Shown one piece after another: positions 1 to 12,680 of a stretch of DNA of 64,000 nt. The notes under the pieces are model-generated. The model ran no database searches, was not told the origin of the DNA, and worked only from the letters and a program-made list of their open reading frames with translations. A program made the position numbers and the translations under genes. This DNA comes from Roseibacillus sp. (GTDB taxonomy: Bacteria; Verrucomicrobiota; Verrucomicrobiia; Verrucomicrobiales; Akkermansiaceae). How positions within the stretch are numbered: position 1 is the first letter of the stretch; every line of letters begins with the position of its first letter. The stretch spans positions 416,001 to 480,000 of the forward strand of contig JBPOGI010000002.1 of the NCBI GenBank assembly GCA_051251855.1. Reading direction: 5' to 3'.

Positions 1-1774
1 TAAGTTCGAATACGACTTCGGCTTCGAATCAGCGGCAGCTTGTCCTAGTGTTTCAGTGGTTGATCTCAATGGAGATGGTTGGGATGATTTTTATTTGATG
101 GCTCGGTGGGGGCGCAATCAGCTCTTTATCAATCAGCAAGATGGCACCTTTAAGGAAAGCGCCGCTGAATTCGGACTCGATATTCTCAATCACTGCACGG
201 GAGCAGCCTTTGTTGACTTTGATAATGACGGGGACAAGGACCTCATCCTCAGCCGGAGCTACGCGCGCAGCCAAATCCTTGAAAATGTAGGAAATAGGTT
301 TCACGATGTCAGTCGTTCCTGCGGGGTCGAACTTCCTGCGATGGCGACCTCGGTTTCTGTCGCCGACTATAATAGGGATGGTCTGCTTGATGTCTTCTTC
401 ACTACCTACGGGAGCGACCGGCTCCTTCGTGAGTTTCTTCCCATGTCGCAGCAGGAGGAGCTAGCGGCGATATCATCTCAGGGGAAGCATCATCCGGTCT
501 TGAATGCCTTGGGGGCTCCCAATGTCCTATTGGTCAATCGTGGGGGAGGGAAGTTCAAGGTGGCACCCGAGTCACCTCAATTGGCAGGATGGAAGACAAG
601 CCTTTGCAGTGTGTGGGCGGACTATGATCAGGACGGAGATGCGGACCTCTATGTCAGTAACGACTTCGGTCCAGATGCTCTGATGAGGAACGACTACCCG
701 AACGGGTTCAAAGATGTGACTCTCGAGGAGGGGCACGAGTCCATGGCTGGATTTGGGATGGGAGTTTCTTGGGGAGACTACGACTTGGATGGGGCACAGG
801 ATCTCTACATCTCTAACATGTATAGCAAGGCTGGTCTCCGCATTGGGAAGCAGATTGAAGGGATAGACCCGCGATTCGAGAAGTTTAACAACGGCAACCG
901 TCTCTACCGTCGAAAGGAGAATCACTTTGAGCTCACTTCAGGCTTAAAGCCACCTGAGCATCTTGTGGCGAAAGTCGGTTGGTCTTGGGGAGGGCAATTT
1001 GCGGATTTTAACAATGATGGCTTTTTGGATATTTATGTGCCGTCCGGCTACTTCACCGCGCCCGATGCGGTGGCGGGCGGCGATGATTTGTGAAGTGTCT
1101 ATTGGCGCGGTGCAGTTTGCACCGACCCCGGTTTGGAGAAAGGATTTCGCAACAACAAAGGATGGAAGGACGTCGACTTTGATAGCTTCGTGGTTCAGAA
1201 GCAGGACGCTGATGGCAAATGGTTTGCGCAATCCTTTAGTGGTCATGAAACCAATAAGCTCTTCATGAATCAAGGAGGGGAATCTTTCTTCGATATGTCA
1301 GCTTTAGCCGGTTTGGATAGTGATGCCGATGGGAGATCTTTCGTCCTTTTGGACTACGACCGGGATGGTTGGCAGGATTTGATTCTAGTGAATTCGAACT
1401 CTCCTCAATTGGAAATTTTCCACAATGAAATGGGCCGAAGGTCATTCGGAGGGCGGAGTATCGTGTTTCATCTGATTGGAGGGAATGAAAGTTCGGAGGC
1501 GAGCGAAGAGTGGTCGAATCGAGATGCCCTGGGTGCTGTTGTGACCGTCAAAGTAGCTGGGAAAACAATCATGCGGGAGTTGCGTTGCGGAGAAGGACTC
1601 GGTGCGCAAAATTCTGGAATGTTACTGGTCGGTATCGGCGAGAACGAGATGATTGAATCTGGTGAGGTGAGATGGCCCTCGGGTAAACGTCAGACGCTCG
1701 ATGCTCTCGAAGCAGGAATGTTGGTCACGATAAAAGAAAGAGGCGGAATTGCCGTAAGGACCTATAACCGTTGA
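1..1774 (+). CDS. FG-GAP/VCBS-repeat + ASPIC/UnbV (CRTAC1-like) protein, 5'-partial, with in-frame TGA at 1091-1093 (putative selenocysteine)
   Basis: The frame is open from position 2 (KFEYDFGFESAAACPSVSVVDLNGDGWDD). It has repeated DxDxDGxxD motifs. ORFs 56..1093 and 1133..1774 are in the same frame, joined by TGA-SVYWRGAVCTDPG, and a hairpin follows the TGA. The C-terminus has an ASPIC/UnbV-like segment (NRDALGAVVTV...GEVRWPSG). Confidence 0.85.
1108..1124 (+). promoter_or_regulatory. Putative bacterial SECIS hairpin 1
   Basis: CGGTGCA-GTT-TGCACCG is a perfect 7-bp stem. Its loop starts with G after a 21-nt spacer from the in-frame TGA. Confidence 0.75.
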
Positions 1775-2013
1775 GGTTTAAAGGCCGCTTTTACAGAATG
1801 ATTAATGATTCTTAATCGCTTGCTTCCCGTCATAAGTATCCAAATTTCAATGGGCTGCATCTTTCTTTGCAGAAACCACCATGAACTTTGTCAAAACGGG
1901 TCAAATACTCCGCTTTTACGAGAAAATCGTTGTGCTCTGCTATCTGATTTCTATTATCGCGAAGCTGATTTTGTGGTGTTTGCTTAAACGCCCAATGGCA
2001 ACACCTAGAACTC

Positions 2014-2859
2014 ATGAAAAATAAAACAATACTCGCCTTATTAGCGGTTTCAGCAATTGGCGCGCAAGCAGCGGCGATTCATACTGGGCTTCTGAACTAT
2101 TGGACCTTAGATGGTAATGGAGAAGATTCAGCCAGCGACTTCACAGAAGGAACTAGCACCGTCGAAGATGATATGACAGCGGGTGGCGCTGTTGGAACAA
2201 CGACTATTCTTTCTACTGGAGGCTTGTTTGGGGGCGCCGTTGATTTTGAGGTGGGTTCTGGCGTTGATGGTCATCTCGCTGCGACAGCAAGCGCTGATAC
2301 TCAGTTCGCAGGAGAAAGTATTACTGTCTCTCTTTGGGCTCAGTTCGAAGACAATAGCACTGGCGACTGGCAGTCCCTGCTGGTGAACGGAGAAGGCAAC
2401 AACTACCGCATCTCGACTAACCGCAATAATCCTGGTCGCAACCAAGCAAGCGCAGCCTTCGGAACGGGTGACCTTAACTCAGGGGTGGATATCCGTGCTG
2501 CTGGACCCGTTTCTGGTTTTCACCACATCGTGGTCACTGCAGTCAATGGAGCTCCTGTAAACATCTACGTTAATGGTGTTCTCGAAGGCACTTCCGGCGG
2601 GAATTCTGCAATTACTAATGATGACCCAGGGGTACCCGACGAACTCTGGATTGGAAACAATGTCGATGATCCAGATCGTCAGTGGGACGGATTGATTGAT
2701 GATGTCGCCCAGTGGGATCGTGCTTTGACTGCTGCTGAAGTTACTGAAATCTATGACGCAGGAGTTCTCGGCATCAGTTTGGGTGCCATTCCTGAGCCGA
2801 CTTCAGGACTTCTTCTTGGTCTCGGTGGTTTGACTGTGCTTCTTCGCCGTCGCCGATAA
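2014..2859 (+). CDS. PEP-CTERM protein with LamG/concanavalin-like domain
   Basis: N-terminal signal peptide. LamG motifs FHHIVVT...IYVNG and WDGLIDDVAQWDRALT. C-terminal IPEPTS-hydrophobic-RRRR sorting signal. Confidence 0.92.
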   Translation: MKNKTILALLAVSAIGAQAAAIHTGLLNYWTLDGNGEDSASDFTEGTSTVEDDMTAGGAVGTTTILSTGGLFGGAVDFEVGSGVDGHLAATASADTQFAGESITVSLWAQFEDNSTGDWQSLLVNGEGNNYRISTNRNNPGRNQASAAFGTGDLNSGVDIRAAGPVSGFHHIVVTAVNGAPVNIYVNGVLEGTSGGNSAITNDDPGVPDELWIGNNVDDPDRQWDGLIDDVAQWDRALTAAEVTEIYDAGVLGISLGAIPEPTSGLLLGLGGLTVLLRRRR

Positions 2860-2899
2860 ATTCTCATACCCTTCAAGGGTCGTACGTAATTTTTCTAGG

Positions 2900-2930
2900 A
2901 ACGACCGGTCGCAAGATCGGTCGTTTTTTT
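2900..2930 (+). terminator. Rho-independent terminator-like hairpin
   Basis: AACGACCGGTC-GCAA-GATCGGTCGTT followed by a T run, 40 nt after the PEP-CTERM stop. Confidence 0.8.
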
Positions 2931-3013
2931 ATTCCCCTTGAGAGTCCAAATTGGGCACAGTATTGCCAGTTCTTTCGATGAAGCCGAGAGAGATTTCGCT
3001 CACCTATTCTTCG

Positions 3014-6000
3014 ATGCAATCATACACGTTATTTCAAAGCCTTGTTTTCGCTTCGGCTTCGTTTTTCTGGGTAGCTCCTCTTCAGGCTATTCCCAAAGTT
3101 TTGGAAGACGAACCCGAGATCATTGCTGCTCCAGGTTTAGAAAATAGGGAACTCGTCGGACCGCTGTCAGAGGTCATTGATCGCTTGTCTCCCAAAGATG
3201 ATGGCTGGGATACCGAGGCCTTTAGTGAGGCCGCTTCCGCTCAGTTGTATCGCTTGGGCGCTCTCTTGAAGTCTCCCGAGAGAGAGGACTCTGCTTACGC
3301 ATCCCTTGCCGATGAGGAATTCACTTCCGCTGTTCTTCGCCCTGATGAGAAGAATCTGGACCTTCTGGAAGGCGACGAATTTCAGGTTCGAAAATGGAAT
3401 GGCGTCATCGATTCCTCAAAGACCCTTTCTCTTTCGGAGGCTTGCAACCAGTTCCGCTCCGCCTTTGCAGCAGACGAAAAGTTGCAACTGGCAAGCAAGC
3501 TCTACAAGGTGATGCCGCAGGGCGAAGGAGTGACCCAGACTGATGTCCTGGTGGAGGCTGCGGGCAAAGCGCCTGCTGCCGGACGCCGCCAGATCAATGC
3601 CGAATGGAGATGTCATTGGAAGGATGAGGAAGGCCAGCCTCAGCTCACGAAAATCGAGCTTCTGAGTTATCAAGAAGTGACTCGTCCCTTGGGGGAAGGA
3701 AAGCCCCTCTTCTCCGATCGAACGAAGGAGGCTTTGGGCCGCAATGCGAGCTTGCAGGAGCAACTCCTTCATTCCTCGGATCATTGGCGGGCCCGATTTC
3801 CGCGGGACCTCGGGCTGGACGTGGTCGCGAACGTGGGCTTCGTGCTGGCAGACCTCAATGGTGATGATTTAGAGGATCTCTATTTTTGCCAGCAAGGCGG
3901 CCTTCCCAACCTGCTCTTTCTTCGGCAACCGAATGGCACCTTCCGAGATGCTTCCGAAGGGAGTGGGGTTGATTGGCTTGATTTTTCTCCCAGTGCGTTG
4001 GCCATTGATCTCGATAAAGATGGCGACCGCGATTTGGTGGTGGCCTTGCAGTTCGAGTTGCTCTTGATGCGCAACGATGGTCAGGCCAAGTTCGAGATCG
4101 TGACCCGCGTTCCGGTTCTGGCGCAGACTTTCTCAATCAGTGCCGCGGACTACGATCTCGATGGCGACCTGGATCTTTTCTCGTGTGGCTATAATCCAAC
4201 GATGGAAGACTTGGAAGAGAGCGGTGCCTTAGGTTCTCCTACCCCGTTCCATGATGCAAACAATGGGGGACCCAATACCCTGCTGAAAAATGTCGGGCCC
4301 TTTGAGTTTCGAGATGCGACTGTGGAGAGTGGCTTGAGCGAACAGAGCAACACTCGCTTTAGCTTTGCTTCTGGTTGGGAAGACTATGACCGGGATGGTG
4401 ACCCTGACCTCTATGTTGCCAACGACTACGGTCGCAATAATCTTTATCGCAATGATGAAGGGAAGTTTGTGGACGCTGCTGGTGAACTGGATGTGGAAGA
4501 TATGTCCTCGGGAATGTCGGTGAGCTGGGGTGATGTCAATCGGGATGGAAAGAGTGATCTTTATGTGAGCAACATGTTTTCTTCGGCGGGCAATCGGATC
4601 ACCTTTCAAAAGCAATTTCAAAATGGAGGGGCGGGGGAAGCTTTGGATACTTTCAAACGTTTCGCACGAGGTAACGCCCTCTTTCTAGGAACTCCAGAGG
4701 GAGATTTTGATGATGTGAGCGAGGAAGCCGGAGCGACGATGGCACGTTGGTCTTGGGGGTCTCGTCTCGCGGATTTGAACAATGATGGGTGGGAGGATAT
4801 TCTCGCGGCCAACGGTTTCATTAGCACGCCCGATACGGGAGACCTCTGAAGTGTCTATTGGCGACAGGTCGTGTCGCTCTCTCCGATTGATGACTTTAAT
4901 GAGCAAGCGTTGCAAAAGTATAAGCACCGCTGGAGTGCCTTGTCTCGCTTGCTTCATGAAGACCGTTCCTTCAGCGGGGGGGAGCGGCATAACGCATTTC
5001 TCAATTTGGGGGAGGGCCGTTTTGCCGATATCTCGGCGGTGACCGGTTTTAACTTTGCGGAAGATGGCCGGGCTTTGGTGACTCAAGATTGGGATTTTGA
5101 TGGCGACCTTGATGTCTGGGTCACGGCACGGACAGCGCCCCGAGTGCGTCTTCTCGAAAACCAATCGCAGAACAGTGGAGAGTCCGTCTTCATTCGTTTG
5201 CAGGGGAATGGAACGACTTCGAACTCAGATGCGGTCGGGGCTCGTTGCGAAGTTTGGTTGGTGGATGATGAGCGGCCTCTGACTCGTTCTCGGACCGCAG
5301 GAGATTCCTTTCTCTCGCAAGGAAGCTCTTGGCTTCACTTTGGACTGGGTGCCGAGCCTCAGATTGCGCGGGTCATTGTTCATTGGCCCGCTGGTCAGAG
5401 TGAAGAGTTCACCGGGATCGAGAGTGGGGGGCGGTACTTGCTCCATCAAGGACAGCCCCAAGCGAAACAGTGGAGTCCTCCTGCCCAAGTGAAGCTCGCC
5501 GAGGCCAGTCCGCTTGAATTGCCTCATGAGACCGAACAAGCCCGGATTGTGCTCCCCAACTCTTTGTTGTTGCCCCTCCTGGAAACAAACGAAGGCGAGG
5601 CGATTTCTGACCCGAGCAAAAAGGGTCCAATAGTGATTAATTTATGGTCTCAGACTTGTTCTTCTTGTCTCGAGGAACTGAAGGAGTGGACCGAGTTCGC
5701 TCCTCAATTGAAAGCGGCCGGCCTTCGGGTCTTGGCCCTCAATACTGATGCCATTGCTCAGACTGGCGATCTTCCAGAGGGACAAGAATTTTTGCGCGAG
5801 ATCGAGTTTCCCTATTCTTCCAACTCCACCAACGAGGACACTCTTCAGCGATTAGACATTTTTCAGCAGAGCTTACTGGACCGATGGCTTCCACTCCCTA
5901 TTCCTTGTAGCTTTCTTGTGAATGCTTCTGGCAAGGTGGCGGTGGTTTACAAGGGTCCCGTTGCTGCAGAGACCTTGCTCGCGGATTTAGCTCTGCTCGA

Positions 6001-6811
6001 AGCTGATTCTGTCACCTTAAGGAACAAGGCCACTCCCTTCTCCGGTAGGTGGGCTGCTGGCCCTCCTCTGATTGGTCCGAAAAGATACGTCGCACGACTT
6101 CTTGATTTCAAAAAAGTTGTCGATGCTGAGCGCTACTATCGGCGCTATCTCGAGTTGGAACGTAAGTTTCCTGACTCGCCGTCGGGTCCGAGGGCCTCTG
6201 CTTTGAAGTTTCTCGCCTTTGTGGCCTCGGGGCGAGAGGACTATGCCTCAGCAATTAGCTACCTCGAGGAGGCTGTTTCTCTCTTTCCTCAGGAACCGGA
6301 ATTTCAGCAACTCCTGAAAACGGCTCAAGACAAGAGGCGACTCTCGTCTCCTAAAGAGACTTTAAAGCCCCTGTTGGCCCAAGTGGAAGCAGAGCCCAAG
6401 AACGGTCAGGCTCATTTGGCTCTTGCTGATGGCTATCGCGACATGGGAGAACCCGCCAAAGCAATCGAAAGTTACAAGAATGCATTGAGACGCGAACCAG
6501 GATTGTTCGTGGCGGCAGGAAAGCTCGCTTGGATTCTAGCAACTCATCCGAGTCCTGAGATTCGGGAGCCAAAAGCAGCCTTGGAGCTGGCCAATCGGCT
6601 CATGTCCCTGAACGCAGCGCCGAATCCCAACTTCTTGGACCTTCAGGGAATCGCGCTCGCTGCTAATGGAGACTTCGCTGCGGCCGTTAAAAAGGCTCAA
6701 GCGGCCTTGGTGCTTTTGCCGGAAGGCTCTCCTTATCAGAAGGAAGTGAGTTCCCGCCTTGGTCTCTATAAAGAAGGAAAAGCCTATTATGAGGGTAAGG
6801 CTTCCAAGTAA
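3014..6811 (+). CDS. 1265-aa FG-GAP + ASPIC/UnbV + thioredoxin-like (CxxC) + TPR protein with in-frame TGA at 4847-4849 (putative Sec612), paralogue A
   Basis: ORFs 2951..4849 and 4871..6811 are in frame, linked by TGA-SVYWRQV. ATG 3014 was chosen by homology to ATG 7063. Features: hydrophobic N-terminus, DxDxDGDxD repeats, UnbV motif WLHFGLG...VHWP, redoxin motif NLWSQTCSSCLEEL, C-terminal TPRs. Confidence 0.85.
4861..4877 (+). promoter_or_regulatory. Putative bacterial SECIS hairpin 2
   Basis: GCGACA-GGTCG-TGTCGC. The loop begins after a 17-nt spacer from the TGA, and the CAGGTC apex resembles the E. coli fdhF SECIS apex. Confidence 0.75.
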
Positions 6812-6945
6812 TTGCGAGTTGATTCGAGTTCCCGCTAGTCGCTGAAATCGCGCTCTGCTTTGCGGGCGTCGAGGTCAGTGAATTCTTTTTAGGTGGCTTC
6901 AATTTCAGCTTCTTCAGAAGGGAGGTAATCAACAATTTTCTATAG

Positions 6946-6975
6946 AACGATTGGTTGAAAGATCGGTCGTTTTTT
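6946..6975 (+). terminator. Terminator-like hairpin, duplicated copy of 2900-2930
   Basis: AACGATTGGTT-GAAA-GATCGGTCGTT plus a T run. Stem substitutions relative to the first copy retain G-U pairing. Confidence 0.7.
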
Positions 6976-7062
6976 ATTTCCTTTTAGAGTCCTCACTGGA
7001 CACATTGATGACAACCCTCTTGATGAGGTCGTTCGTAGATTTCGAGTCTCACTTATTGTTCG

Positions 7063-10000
7063 ATGCAGTCATATAATTCATTTTCAAGCCTTGTTCTGGT
7101 TTCGACTTTTTTTCTCTGGGCGGCTCTTGTTCAAAGTGCTCCCCAAGCTTCGCAAGACGAACCTGAAATCATTGCTGCTCCTGGGTTGGATGAGAGAGAG
7201 TTGGTGGGGCCGTTGTCCGAGGTGCTCGATCATATGTCTCCCAAGGATGATGGCTGGGATACCGAAGCCTTCAGTGAGGCCGCATCTGCACAATTGTATC
7301 GCCTAGGCAACCTCTTGAAGTCTCCCGATATGGATGCCGCGACTCTCGCGGACCTCACGGATGGTAGTTTTGTGTCCGCAACTCTCCGACCCAAGGAAGC
7401 CTCTCTCGATCTCTCGGAAGAAAGCGAGTTTGAGGTTCGCAAATGGAATGGCGAACTCGATTCAACAAAGGCTCTTACTCTTTCTGATGCCTCTCTTAAA
7501 TTCCGCGCTGCCTTTGCTCCCGAAGAGGTTTTGCAAATCAAAACCAAGCTTTACAAGGTGATGCCGCAGGATGGGGGAGTCACGCTCACCGATGTCTTGG
7601 TGGAGGCCTCTGCCAAAGCTAGCACCTCTGGACGCCGCCAGATCAATGCCGAATGGAGGTGCCATTGGAAGAGCGAGGACGACCAGCCGTTGCTCACTCG
7701 AATCGAGCTTTTGAAGTATGAGGAGGTGACCCGTCCCCAAGGGAAAGGCCAGCCTCTCTTTGTTGACCGGACCAGAACCGCGCTCGGCAATAACGCGAGC
7801 TTGGATAAGCAACTCCTGCATTCCACGGACCATTGGCGGGCACGGATTCCGCAAAGTCTGGGTTTGGATGTGGTGGCGAACGTGGGTCTATTGCTCGCGG
7901 ACCTGAACGGTGATGATTTGGAAGACCTTTACGTTTGCCAACAAGGAGGCTTGCCCAACCTGCTCTTCCTGCGTCAACCGGATGGCACCTTTGTCGATGC
8001 TTCCAAAGAGAGTGGGGTTGATGTCCTTGATTTTACAGCGAGCTCCTTGGCCATCGATCTCGATAAGGATGGCGACCGCGATTTGGTGGTGGCTTTGCAG
8101 TTCGAACTCATGTTGATGCGGAATAATGGCCAAGCGAAGTTCGAGCTGATGGCTCGGGTTCCATTAGCCGCTCAGACTTTTTCGATCAGTGCCTCTGACT
8201 ACGACCTGGACGGCGATCTCGACATTTTCACCTGCGGTTATAATCCGTCATTGCAAGAGGCTGAAGAAAATGGAGCGTTAGGTTCTCCTTCTCCCTTTCA
8301 TGATGCCAACAATGGCGGACGCAATACTTTCTTGAAGAATGTGGGAGCCTTTGAGTTCCAGGACGTGACTGTGGAAAGCGGCATCAGTGAGCAGAACAAC
8401 ACTCGCTTCAGTTTTGCTTCTGCTTGGGAAGACTATGATCGTGACGGCGATCCCGACCTTTATGTCGCCAACGATTACGGGCGTAATAACCTTTACCGTA
8501 ACGATGGCGGAAAGCTGGTAGATGTCGCCGCTGAATTGAAGGTAGAGGATATGTCTTCGGGGATGTCGGTGAGTTGGGGCGACCTGAATCGTGATGGTCG
8601 AAGCGATCTCTATGTGAGCAATATGTTTTCTTCGGCAGGGAATCGCATCACCTTTCAAAAGCAGTTTCAAAATGGAGGGGCAGGGGAGGCCTTGGATACT
8701 TTTCAACGATTCGCGCGAGGCAATGCTCTCTTCCTTGCCACTCCCGATGGAGGCTTCGATGATGCCAGTGAGGATGCGGGAGCGACCATGGCTCGATGGG
8801 CTTGGGGCTCTCGTCTGGCGGATTTGAATAACGATGGTTGGGAGGATGTCCTGGCTGCCAACGGCTTCATTAGCACCCCCGATACGGGAGACCTCTGAAG
8901 TGTCTATTGGCGACAGGTCGTGTCGCACTCTCCCATTGATGACTTTAGTGAGCAGTCGGTGCAGAAGTATAAGAATCGTTGGAGCGCCTTATCGCGTTTG
9001 CTCCGCTCTGATCGCTCCTTCAGTGGCGGAGAGAGGCATTGTGCTTTCCTCAATCTGGGGGGAGAGCGTTTTGCCGACATCTCGGCGGTGACGGGTTTTG
9101 ATTTTGCAGAAGATGGTCGCGCCTTGGTGACCGAGGATTGGGACTTCGATGGCGACCTCGATGTCTGGGTCACCGCACGAACGGCTCCACGAGTGCGCCT
9201 CCTTGAAAATACTTCTCAGAATGCGGGAGAGTCTCTTTTCCTCCGCTTGCATGGGAACGGAACCACAACGAATCCAGACGCGGTGGGGGCTCGCTGCGAA
9301 GTCTGGTTAGAGGGAGATGACAGACCTCTCACCCGTTCTCGCACTGCGGGAGACTCCTTCATTTCTCAAGGGAGTTCTTGGTTGCACTTTGGGCTCGGGG
9401 TGGAGCCGAAGATTGCGCGAGTGATTGTTCATTGGCCTGCTGGTCAGAGTGAAGAGTTCACAGGGATTGAGAGCGGAGGACGCTACCTTCTTCATCAAGG
9501 GCAGCCGCAAGCGAAAGGTTGGAGTCCTCCAGCGCAGGTGAAGTTCGCAGAAGTCAGCCCTCTTGAGTTGCCTCATGAGCCCGAACAAGCCCGTATTGTT
9601 TTACCGAACTCGCTTCTATTGCCTCTCCTGCAGACTCATGAGGGTGCTGCTATTTCTGACTTCAATAAAGAGGGGCCAACGCTCATCAATTTGTGGTCTC
9701 AGACTTGTTCTTCATGTCTTGAGGAGTTGAAGGAGTGGACCGAGTTCAAACCTAAATTCGAGGCTGCGGGTTTGAGGGTGATAGCTCTCAATACCGATGC
9801 TATCGGTCAAACTGACGAGAGCTCTGAGGGGCAGGATTTTCTGAGCGAGATCGAGTTTCCTTATTCAGCTCAGTCCGCCAACGTGGAGACCCTGCAGCGA
9901 TTGGATCTCTTTCAACAAAGCTTTCTCGACCGATGGCTTCCGTTGCCAGTTCCATGCAGTTTCCTGCTGGATCGTTTCGGTAAGGCGGCGGTGATTTATA

Positions 10001-10860
10001 AAGGCCCTGTCGCAGCAGAGACTTTGCTCGCGGATTTGGCCCTGCTTGAAGCCGATTCTGAGACGTTGAGGAGTAACGCCACCCCCTTCGCCGGTATCTG
10101 GGCTGACGGTCCACCTCTAGTGGGACCGAAAAGCTATGTCACCCGGCTTTTGGACTACAAGAAGCTGGCCGATGCCGAGCGTTATTACCGGCGCTACGTG
10201 GAGATGGAGCGCAGCCTTCCGGACACCCCTTCGGGACCCATGATTGAAGCCTTAAAGTTTCTCGCTCTTCTTGCTTCTCGAACAGAGAACTTTGCTCCCG
10301 CAGTAGCGCATCTTGAAGAAGCAATTTCTATCGTTCCAGAGGACCCTGAGCTGCAACAGCTTCTTAAGGAGGCTCAGGAGAAGCTTAAAGGTGCCACTCC
10401 GACGGATCTGTTATCGCCCTTGCTGGCCAAAGTGGAAGCCGAGCCAAAAAATGGGAAAGCTCATCTCGAACTTGCGGATGCTTATCGTAATCTTGGAGAA
10501 GCAGCGAAAGCGGTCGAAAGTTATAAGAACACGCTGAGGAACGATCCGAAATTGTTTGTGGCCGCTGGGAAGCTGGCTTGGATTCTCGCAACTCACCCCA
10601 GCCCAGAGATTCGTGAGCCAGAGGCGGCTTTGCAGTTGGCGAATCGACTCGTGGCGATGAACGGAGCAATGAATCCAAATTTCTTGGACCTTCAGGGAAT
10701 CGCGCTGGCAGCTAATGGTAAATATGAAGCGGCCGCAGAAAAAGCTGAAGCGGCCTTGCCGCTCGTGCCAGAAGGCTCTCCTTACCAGAAGGAAATTCGT
10801 TCCCGCCTGAGTCTCTATCAAGAGGGGAAGGCCTACTTTGAGGGAAAGGATTCTAAGTGA
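7063..10860 (+). CDS. 1265-aa FG-GAP + ASPIC/UnbV + thioredoxin-like (CxxC) + TPR protein with in-frame TGA at 8896-8898 (putative Sec612), paralogue B
   Basis: ORFs 7063..8898 and 8920..10860 are in frame, linked by TGA-SVYWRQV. The gene is collinear with 3014..6811 and has the same length. Confidence 0.87.
8910..8926 (+). promoter_or_regulatory. Putative bacterial SECIS hairpin 3
   Basis: GCGACA-GGTCG-TGTCGC, identical to 4861-4877. Confidence 0.75.
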
Positions 10861-10948: not shown

Positions 10949-11638
10949 TTATAGGCGGTTTCTTCGGAAGAAAAAGATGCCCAAAGTCATTGAGGCGAAG
11001 AGGGGAAGGCTGGGCTCGGGCACGGCAGAGAAGGTGCCAAGCATCCTGACGGAGAAATCACCCGCCGGGCCGTTGTTAAAACTAAATTGCAAGCTATCGA
11101 CTTGCGAGAAGTCGGTGGCGCTCGCATTGGTGAAGGAGGAGAAGGGAAAGTCAATGAGGGTGTCGTTGGTGAGGGCGCTCGCTTGAAGGATTTGGAGGCT
11201 AGCGACCTGACTGTTGATGTCGGTTACTGAGACGCTGATTTCGAGATTTGCATCAGAGTCGGCAACGAGGAAGGCGAGCGAGGTAGCGCCACCTGCCGAG
11301 AGGTCGAAGCCACCGAGTCCGGCGCTATTGGCATCATAGGTGAGGGAGAGGTCGGCGGTGAGACCGGGGCCGAGTTCGGCAAAGTATTGGCCTGTGACAG
11401 AACTGACACCCACATTGGCAGTACGCGCAAAAGGGTTAGAGGTGACTGTTACCTCGATATTGCGCCAAGCTCCTGGAATGGAGTTTGAGGGATCTTGGAA
11501 GCTCTGTTGATGGGAGCCGGAGGAAACGGAGAGAGGGCTAGGGCCTGAGTCAAAGTTGTCGAGCGCCTGAACCAAAGTCAGTGCGGCTGGGCAATTGAAG
11601 GAGACGGCAAAAGTGCAAAGGAGAGTAGGGCGAATCAT
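10949..11638 (-). CDS. PEP-CTERM sorting domain protein
   Basis: Signal-like N-terminus and C-terminal VPEPS-hydrophobic-RRNR. Confidence 0.88.
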   Translation of the reverse strand: MIRPTLLCTFAVSFNCPAALTLVQALDNFDSGPSPLSVSSGSHQQSFQDPSNSIPGAWRNIEVTVTSNPFARTANVGVSSVTGQYFAELGPGLTADLSLTYDANSAGLGGFDLSAGGATSLAFLVADSDANLEISVSVTDINSQVASLQILQASALTNDTLIDFPFSSFTNASATDFSQVDSLQFSFNNGPAGDFSVRMLGTFSAVPEPSLPLFASMTLGIFFFRRNRL

Positions 11639-11686: not shown

Positions 11687-12430
11687 CTACAAGCCTTCTC
11701 GACGCCGTCTGAGACATACTCCGAAGCTAGATATTGCAATGAGTATCAAAGAAGAAGGCTCTGGAATCGATTGAGTGTTAACTGCTCTGACAGAGACTTC
11801 AGATATCACGATGTCGGGGGCTCCTTGGCCGGTAATATTGTGCACTTCTACCTGCAGGGAGGTGAGATTTTGCATGTCGATACTCTCAAAGACATCATAA
11901 GGAATGTCGACTTGCTGGCGAGAATAGTTGGCTTCTTGTCGGAAGACGTGGGTCTCAGGGAGTCCACCGAGGGATTCCATGGAGATTTGGATTTCGAAGG
12001 GGGCTTGTGAGAACTCGACTAAGAGTCCAAGGCAATTGGCGGCGTTCGACATGGTCATATCGAAGGTCATGCCGCTGGGGGCTTGATAGTCCAACCAAGT
12101 CCGAGCGCTCACCCCAGGGCCGTAGGAAAGCACGAAGATGCCATGTTCGGCGGCGATTTCGGCAGTGACGGATCGTTCTTCAGGGATGAGGTTCGCGTCG
12201 ATGCCTAAGTTGCGCGTCCATCCTTGAAGGAGGCTTTCATTCTGAAGAGGCATGGAACTTTGCTGGGCTTCGACGGTGCGTAGCGAGAGATTCTGAGAAC
12301 CTTGGGAAAAATTGTCGAGTTGACCAATGGTGACCGCGAAAGCTTGGCTAGAAAGGGAGAAGACAAGGCTCGGAAGTAGGCTTCTTGTGCGGAGGAGGTT
12401 GTTGAAAGAGGGGAAGGTAGGCATGAACAT
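11687..12430 (-). CDS. PEP-CTERM sorting domain protein, distant paralogue of the neighbouring gene
   Basis: C-terminal IPEPSS-hydrophobic-RRRR. It shares LDNF, GxxRN and GPG motifs with 10949..11638. The start is uncertain (12430 or 12424). Confidence 0.85.
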   Translation of the reverse strand: MFMPTFPSFNNLLRTRSLLPSLVFSLSSQAFAVTIGQLDNFSQGSQNLSLRTVEAQQSSMPLQNESLLQGWTRNLGIDANLIPEERSVTAEIAAEHGIFVLSYGPGVSARTWLDYQAPSGMTFDMTMSNAANCLGLLVEFSQAPFEIQISMESLGGLPETHVFRQEANYSRQQVDIPYDVFESIDMQNLTSLQVEVHNITGQGAPDIVISEVSVRAVNTQSIPEPSSLILIAISSFGVCLRRRREGL

Positions 12431-12680
12431 CAAGAGGACTTAAAAACTAAGAACCCTGAGAGCTGATTTCGTTCATGCTTTTGTTGAGATTTTTTAGAAG
12501 AGGAGGAGCCTACTGCGAAAGCAAGGCTGCAGAGTGAAGCTGAGTTGAACAAGTCGGGCTGTAGGACTATCAAAATGCTCTCCAAACCTCTTTTGTCATT
12601 GGAGTGCTCCGGAGAATCTTTTCCTAAAACCAATAGCTACCTCTCCATCGGGGGAAATCATGCTTTGGTGGACGACAGAG

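Follow-up and report, generated by a model that had tools for sequence, protein, structure and literature searches.

An in-frame UGA in exported FG-GAP/ASPIC-UnbV proteins of a Roseibacillus genome very likely encodes selenocysteine

A 64-kb window of the genome of Roseibacillus sp. (64,000 nucleotides, G000:C6:416001-480000, where G000 is this genome; "the window" denotes this whole stretch, and its coordinates are used for genes) raises the question of whether a run of interrupted genes at its beginning encodes truncated proteins or full-length selenoproteins. Within the first 10.9 kb, translation table 11 yields six open reading frames (ORFs), which resolve into three genes once TGA is read through. 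Each gene carries one in-frame TGA (at 1091, 4847 and 8896), every time in the context DL*SVYWR, and 17 bases, TGAAGTGTCTATTGGCG, are identical across all three. Read-through gives a protein of 841 amino acids (aa) for gene 1, whose ATG lies at C6:415249, 752 bases upstream of the window start, and proteins of 1265 aa for both gene 2 and gene 3. Genes 2 and 3 share 78% identity, and gene 1 is about 32% identical to either. The first-pass annotation of this DNA had described both the three-gene arrangement and the 17-base identity in an otherwise divergent gene 1; comparison of table 11 with read-through translation re-derived the former, and the identity values bear out the latter. It had further proposed that the genes encode full-length selenoproteins and are neither pseudogenes nor two-gene operons, and this proposal is supported by the selenocysteine (Sec) genes of the organism, by the residue found in the TGA column of homologues, by co-occurrence with selA and by a hairpin of the bacterial selenocysteine insertion sequence (bSECIS) type. 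Our overall reading, which we consider very likely, is that each gene gives rise to one long exported protein in which UGA is read as Sec; to a redox-type function of this protein we give an even chance.

All three proteins match FG-GAP repeats and UnbV_ASPIC over the Pfam cut-off and start with a hydrophobic, signal-like segment recognized by eye, and none of the NCBIfam models reaches its cut-off with any of them. Genes 2 and 3 additionally encode an AhpC-TSA/redoxin domain (PF00578 over cut-off) and tetratricopeptide repeats (TPRs); gene 1 is devoid of the thioredoxin domain, of CxxC and of the TPR tail. The longest stretch without a mismatch between genes 2 and 3, of 49 nucleotides (nt), spans both the TGA and the hairpin, and the part 3' of the TGA differs between these two genes by 243 silent versus 143 replacement codon changes. 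The contigs of sequencing runs X1 and X4 revealed no alternative letter at the TGA codons, although X1 and X4 may have supplied this very DNA and do not count as independent evidence.

Conservation of the TGA and of a downstream hairpin

We analyzed the column occupied by the TGA in loci from 40 relatives and in the best 80 of 227 confirmed contig matches, the titles of the latter 80 naming Verrucomicrobiota, Planctomycetota and a few unplaced sources. The column was covered by 139 alignments in 110 loci, of which 35 with E>1e-12, representing internal repeats or distant paralogues, were dropped and 104 were kept. Among these 104 sites, which include the four sites of this genome itself, 101 carried TGA and 3 carried TGC (99 and 3 of 102 distinct sites), and TAA, TAG and TGG were found at none. 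The column is hence occupied by TGA or Cys, the pair that the first-pass annotation had looked to for a Sec position. TGA was present in all of the best 80 of the 227 contig-match loci, the frame stayed open for hundreds of codons 3' of it in 80 of 80, and a CxxC followed downstream in 76 of the 80, three of the four misses being cut by contig ends. The 99 distinct TGA sites are spread over several families and two phyla. A search of 200 phylum-wide genomes with gene 1 as the query (E 1e-15) gave no match outside this genome. Three loci, L020, L021 and L022, contain the motif U-S-C, with a Cys two residues past the Sec, and have no thioredoxin tail. The base that follows a stop codon affects the strength of termination. 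At the 101 homologous sites, Ser in the codon after the TGA was always encoded by AGY (99/99) and never by TCN, as would be expected if a weak termination context were selected for.

The published bSECIS consensus comprises a 3- to 9-nt loop with a G in its first two positions, 16 to 37 nt after the UGA (PMC13188914, section 5). A script of our own found a hairpin of this model in each of the three genes, with the distances and free energies listed in Table 1. By the same script, 98 of 101 TGA sites were positive; the comparison sets gave 0/3 for Cys sites, 33/484 for true TGA stops and 231/4659 for Cys codons. In a second set of 30 loci, collected with a Cys-form query, it was positive for 8/8 TGA and 0/22 non-TGA sites. 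Silent positions within the hairpin are fixed (CAG 95/95, GTC 98/100, GTG 98/100 and TCG 92/95), and the third base of the hairpin Arg codon is A or G, both of which pair with U, in 95 of 100; codons flanking the hairpin, unlike those inside, vary freely. The 51 distinct 34-mers fall into three hairpin registers (46, 4 and 1), and register A includes double-sided pair changes such as C-G to A-U. Gene 1 is the sole case of register C: another 7-bp stem is formed four bases further down from bases that code for other residues. The stem begins 13 to 17 bases after the T of the TGA, gene 1 having a different stem, and the 17-mer shared by the three genes is mostly not the SECIS itself.

Two paralogues within the same genome, G000:C7:336007-338454 (L129) and G000:C1:591381-593813, carry Cys at the column; both are about 810 aa long and have neither the hairpin nor the CxxC tail. 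With the Cys-form query, 251 genomes of the order yielded 30 loci, comprising 21 Cys forms, 8 TGA forms and 1 Asp form. In 20 of the 21 Cys forms, a second Cys is kept in the motif C-x4-C-H-D, and NGH or NGF lies upstream of it in this sister clade. A quick tree, built from 43 of the 45 rows selected (the motif did not capture L021 and L152), separated TGA from Cys forms by one branch with a support of 100, all Cys rows forming their own clade and gene 1 falling into a separate TGA subclade. Because this single branch parts the two forms, the Cys forms appear to be a paralogue clade, not orthologues that lost Sec. Such restriction of Cys to paralogues may explain how the family has escaped searches for Sec/Cys pairs. 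When the ESM Atlas was queried with a Cys paralogue, it returned FG-GAP/ASPIC clusters only. Members of the Cys clade, too, occur mostly in selA-positive genomes.

Selenocysteine machinery in the genomes concerned

Recoding of UGA requires a host that is equipped for it, and the first-pass annotation had made its proposal depend on the sel genes. In this genome selA, selB, selC (tRNA-Sec) and selD each scored over the cut-off. The selD gene has a TGA of its own, at CAG*A, and the formate dehydrogenase gene fdhA (G000:C1:1403243) contains one in CSRA*HAP, followed 18 nt downstream by a hairpin with a GG loop, the geometry of which resembles that of genes 2 and 3. TGA otherwise acts as a normal stop in this organism, since release factor 2 (RF2) is present and 363 of 1599 long ORFs end in TGA (TAA 627, TAG 609). 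A genome code in which TGA means Trp is excluded by RF2, by this stop usage and by the complete lack of TGG at the column. In addition to the normal tRNA-Trp(CCA) at C1:1605262, ARAGORN reported a second one of 87 nt at G000:C1:686953-687039, which has an atypical look and is possibly a false call. A further in-frame TGA, likewise with a hairpin in our scan, interrupts the motif KTYG*QMNE 10 codons into G000:C11:191993 (-), a gene that we take to be MiaB-like by its motif and that is a candidate for a further selenoprotein of this genome.

In the wider survey, selA was the only sel gene scored over the sample of 251 genomes. The TGA form was found in 29 of them, all 29 of which were selA-positive, compared with 73 selA-positive genomes overall. 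Among the 40 relatives, 8 had the TGA form and all 8 had selA, which was present in 20 of the 40. In both samples TGA forms thus occurred in selA-positive genomes only, the pattern that the first-pass annotation had proposed to look for. The Cys form alone, as detected with the Cys-form query, was found in six genomes, two of which (G305 and G313, 86 and 89% complete) gave no selA match. In one genome, G033, two TGA-bearing genes flank a selD fusion, selB, selA and selC, all within 25 kb (L127/L128, G033:C1:4457335-4483073), and this sel region is set among genes for large exported proteins. In G241, G274 and G277, which belong to the same genus as G033, selA lies about 10 kb from a TGA-bearing FG-GAP gene. 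Up to about ten TGA paralogues were found in a single genome, G040.

Predicted structure and competing explanations

The position of the putative Sec was examined in an AlphaFold2 model of gene 3 residues 229-1000, built from a 26-row alignment (predicted local distance difference test score, pLDDT, 89.3; predicted template modelling score, pTM, 0.90). The top structural match was murine CRTAC1 (PDB 9etn), with a Foldseek E value of 2.5e-27 and a Z score of 40.9 at a root mean square deviation of 2.4 over 454 residues. Structures of single propellers, about 330 residues long, can be aligned to model residues 1-489, and because these alignments span model residue 384, which is the Sec, the Sec is placed inside one propeller. 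In the model it follows the sixth Asp-rich FG-GAP loop, precedes the seventh and lies at the start of an inserted helix; a stop at this codon would remove more than one blade together with the UnbV domain. Insertions behind the second strand of several repeats contain many invariant residues. Insertions in an FG-GAP propeller are presumably located on one face, where they could form a pocket. For the C-terminal domain, the structural matches were 2f9s, 1st9 and 4txv, in addition to PF00578 and PF08534 by sequence, and a DsbD-family gene is present in this genome.

These features suggest the following mechanism. SelB would bind the small in-frame hairpin 17-21 nt past the UGA and bring Sec-tRNA, so that the UGA is decoded as selenocysteine. 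In the model, which shows a CRTAC1-like beta-propeller of seven repeats, the Sec would begin the helix inserted in the sixth of them, and its selenol could carry out thiol/selenol redox chemistry outside the cytoplasm, in a pocket formed on one propeller face by the conserved loop insertions. Electrons from DsbD would reach the Sec through the TlpA/ResA-like CxxC domain and reduce it again; this domain is part of the proteins of genes 2 and 3 and presumably acts in trans on that of gene 1. The TPRs may bind partners. The parts of this scheme differ in strength. SelB-dependent insertion of Sec and export of the full-length protein are very likely, as judged from sequence, whereas redox chemistry in the propeller pocket with re-reduction by the TlpA-like CxxC is a proposition to which we give an even chance.

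The recoding of UGA has to be set against explanations in which no Sec is made. The UGA could be a true stop between two genes (611 and 646 aa) whose products jointly form one propeller, or a leaky codon read as Trp or Cys without SelB. Consistent with separate genes, the protein collection stores both halves of genes 2 and 3 as individual proteins, and the two genes contain an in-frame GTG 21 nt past the TGA; this GTG, however, sits within the hairpin and has no clear Shine-Dalgarno sequence by eye, and no signal peptide is apparent by eye in the second half. A plain stop would also be expected to vary between TAA, TAG and TGA, in contrast to the 104 sites described above, and neither version explains the dependence on selA, while the presence of RF2 means that TGA is not a Trp codon here. 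We therefore regard both as very improbable. One stop per frame is likewise what would be seen in pseudogenes that inherited a nonsense mutation, or after an assembly error; yet the very same codon recurs at the 99 distinct sites in several families and two phyla, all 80 loci keep the frame open, and silent changes outnumber replacements after the TGA. As far as sequence can show, this explanation is refuted, and the probability left to it is negligible.

A further alternative accepts the Sec and questions its chemistry: the residue could serve as a metal ligand or a non-redox nucleophile in the pocket, the thioredoxin domain acting otherwise, for example by keeping the exported protein reduced or folded. 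The C-x4-C-H-D motif of the sister clade, the second Cys in 20/21 Cys forms and the upstream NGH/NGF have the look of a ligand cluster, the Sec lies outside any UxxC or CxxU motif, and gene 1 as well as L020, L021 and L022 retain the TGA without a CxxC. On the other hand, the CxxC domain is fused in 76/80 loci of the main clade, and redox roles are expected for most uncharacterized selenoproteins (PMC13188914, section 7). On balance, we find this alternative, the main rival, rather unlikely, though more probable than the two preceding ones.

Several observations weigh against our own reading of a Sec-dependent redox protein. As regards redox chemistry, the four TGA-bearing proteins just named have no CxxC tail of any kind, the tail is absent throughout the Cys clade, and the remaining propeller cysteines are not invariant (22, 23 and 19 of 26 rows). 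As regards recoding, the hairpin script was home-made, is distinct from bSECISearch and had its thresholds set after the hairpins had been viewed; the upper stem of many homologues has -7.3 kcal/mol, slightly weaker than the published -7.5, and the 60-80 nt 3' of the UGA fold no better than shuffled sequences (z -0.9 to 0.4). The quick tree placed no Cys orthologue within the TGA clade, and the Sec/Cys exchange is seen only between paralogues. Finally, the Fisher p of 2e-18 for the co-occurrence of TGA forms with selA is overstated, because the genomes concerned are kin and not independent.

Genomic setting and relation to known families

The features of the locus are compiled in Table 1. The cluster is surrounded by five PEP-CTERM or PEP-CTERM-like genes, three of them in the window (2014-2859, 10949-11638 and 11687-12433) and two upstream (at about -3795 and -1669), an arrangement suggestive of a gene island for the cell surface. 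The regions upstream of genes 2 and 3 have in common a stem-loop ending in a T-run (about 2895-2930 and 6940-6975) that was probably duplicated together with the gene.

Table 1. Features at the start of the window (window coordinates; hairpin distances are counted from the UGA)
Feature	Position	Strand	Description
Gene 1, 3' part	1..1774	+	FG-GAP propeller and ASPIC/UnbV; N-terminal hydrophobic segment; putative Sec at residue 615
Gene 1 TGA	1091..1093	+	In-frame, putative Sec
Gene 1 hairpin	1108..1124	+	SECIS-like, -9.6 kcal/mol; at 21 nt; 7-bp stem capped by a 3-nt loop that opens with GU
LamG and PEP-CTERM gene	2014..2859	+	Between genes 1 and 2
Gene 2	3014..6811	+	1265 aa; signal-peptide-like start, N-terminal domain, FG-GAP propeller with putative Sec612, ASPIC/UnbV, TlpA/ResA-like domain, TPRs
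Gene 2 TGA	4847..4849	+	In-frame, putative Sec612
Gene 2 hairpin	4860..4878	+	SECIS-like, -9.5 kcal/mol; at 17 nt; 7-bp stem capped by a 5-nt loop that opens with GG
Gene 2 CxxC	5657..5668	+	Residues 882-885, thioredoxin-like domain
Gene 3	7063..10860	+	1265 aa; architecture as gene 2
Gene 3 TGA	8896..8898	+	In-frame, putative Sec612; start of helix inserted in sixth FG-GAP repeat
Gene 3 hairpin	8910..8926	+	SECIS-like, -7.9 kcal/mol; at 17 nt; 6-bp stem capped by a 5-nt loop that opens with GG
Gene 3 CxxC	9706..9717	+	Residues 882-885, thioredoxin-like domain; both Cys invariant in 26-row alignment A1
Convergent gene	10949..11638	-	Exported protein, PEP-CTERM-like end by eye, no Pfam match

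The genes resemble the classical SelB/bSECIS systems, such as the alpha subunit of formate dehydrogenase, in the in-frame UGA, the hairpin of consensus shape within the ORF and the full selABCD set. In contrast to these classics, the Sec would be located in an FG-GAP beta-propeller, on a helix within a loop, and would belong to an exported protein of 841-1265 aa, and not be placed in a molybdopterin or thioredoxin active-site motif. The propeller and the UnbV beta-sandwich form a core in common with CRTAC1 (9etn) and with bacterial FG-GAP/ASPIC-UnbV proteins (PF13517, PF01839, PF07593). Identity to CRTAC1 is, however, 16-21%, and the proteins described here differ by an extra N-terminal domain and by the Sec-bearing helical insertions, to which genes 2 and 3 add the TlpA-like domain and the TPRs. 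The C-terminal CxxC domain of genes 2 and 3 is akin to the extracytoplasmic thioredoxins TlpA, ResA and DsbE, although the NCBIfam matches are far below cut-off and, unlike in the catalogued TlpA and redoxin selenoproteins, the Sec lies outside this domain.

The first-pass annotation had regarded the family as a candidate unrecognized one, and this claim holds for the most part. The 119 prokaryotic selenoprotein families in Table 1 of a 2026 review include no FG-GAP or ASPIC entry, and the text of that review (PMC13188914) makes no mention of ASPIC, UnbV, CRTAC1 or FG-GAP. The same four terms are not mentioned in the BSepDB text (PMC13326102) and its supplement (searched without the family list, Table S2), nor in the deep-Sep supplements (PMC12013277) and the SelCysML text (PMC13745706). 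A keyword search for literature linking selenoproteins or selenocysteine to ASPIC, FG-GAP, CRTAC1 or UnbV retrieved nothing relevant, and no paper connecting UnbV with enediynes, subscription journals and bioRxiv supplements being outside its scope. Four ASPIC-UnbV/FG-GAP selenoprotein candidates from planctomycetes have, however, been tabulated before (Kim et al. 2016, PMC4807772, Table S9), each annotated as two genes, three of the four with a bSECISearch match, and with the homologous residue given as G, not C. They appear in the table only, as neither the main text nor S2 Text of that paper mentions ASPIC or FG-GAP. These candidates carry the same domain label as the genes described here and may have their UGA in the same column. 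What we describe is very probably a Sec-recoded family on a scaffold that is absent from the catalogue and was hinted at once in a supplement.

Such a family is a multi-copy addition to the bacterial selenoproteome, one that is stored in halves in the protein collection and omitted by the 2026 catalogue, and its Sec would sit on an exported beta-propeller, not on one of the classical redox folds. For the CRTAC1/ASPIC-UnbV family, in which the literature searched offered no bacterial function, the Sec would point to a probable active site. With three Sec paralogues, two different hairpins, two architectures and two hairpin-less Cys paralogues as natural controls, all in one genome, the locus is convenient for testing. 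It is possible, at slightly less than an even chance in our estimate, that these genes represent a large, lineage-expanded group of selenoenzymes that are exported, bear the selenol on a CRTAC1/integrin-like beta-propeller and recycle it with their own fused thioredoxin. If so, this would be the first chemical function for bacterial ASPIC/UnbV propellers, and, given the roughly ten paralogues in G040 and the embedding of the sel operon in G033, the family may be a main reason why these Verrucomicrobiales keep Sec.

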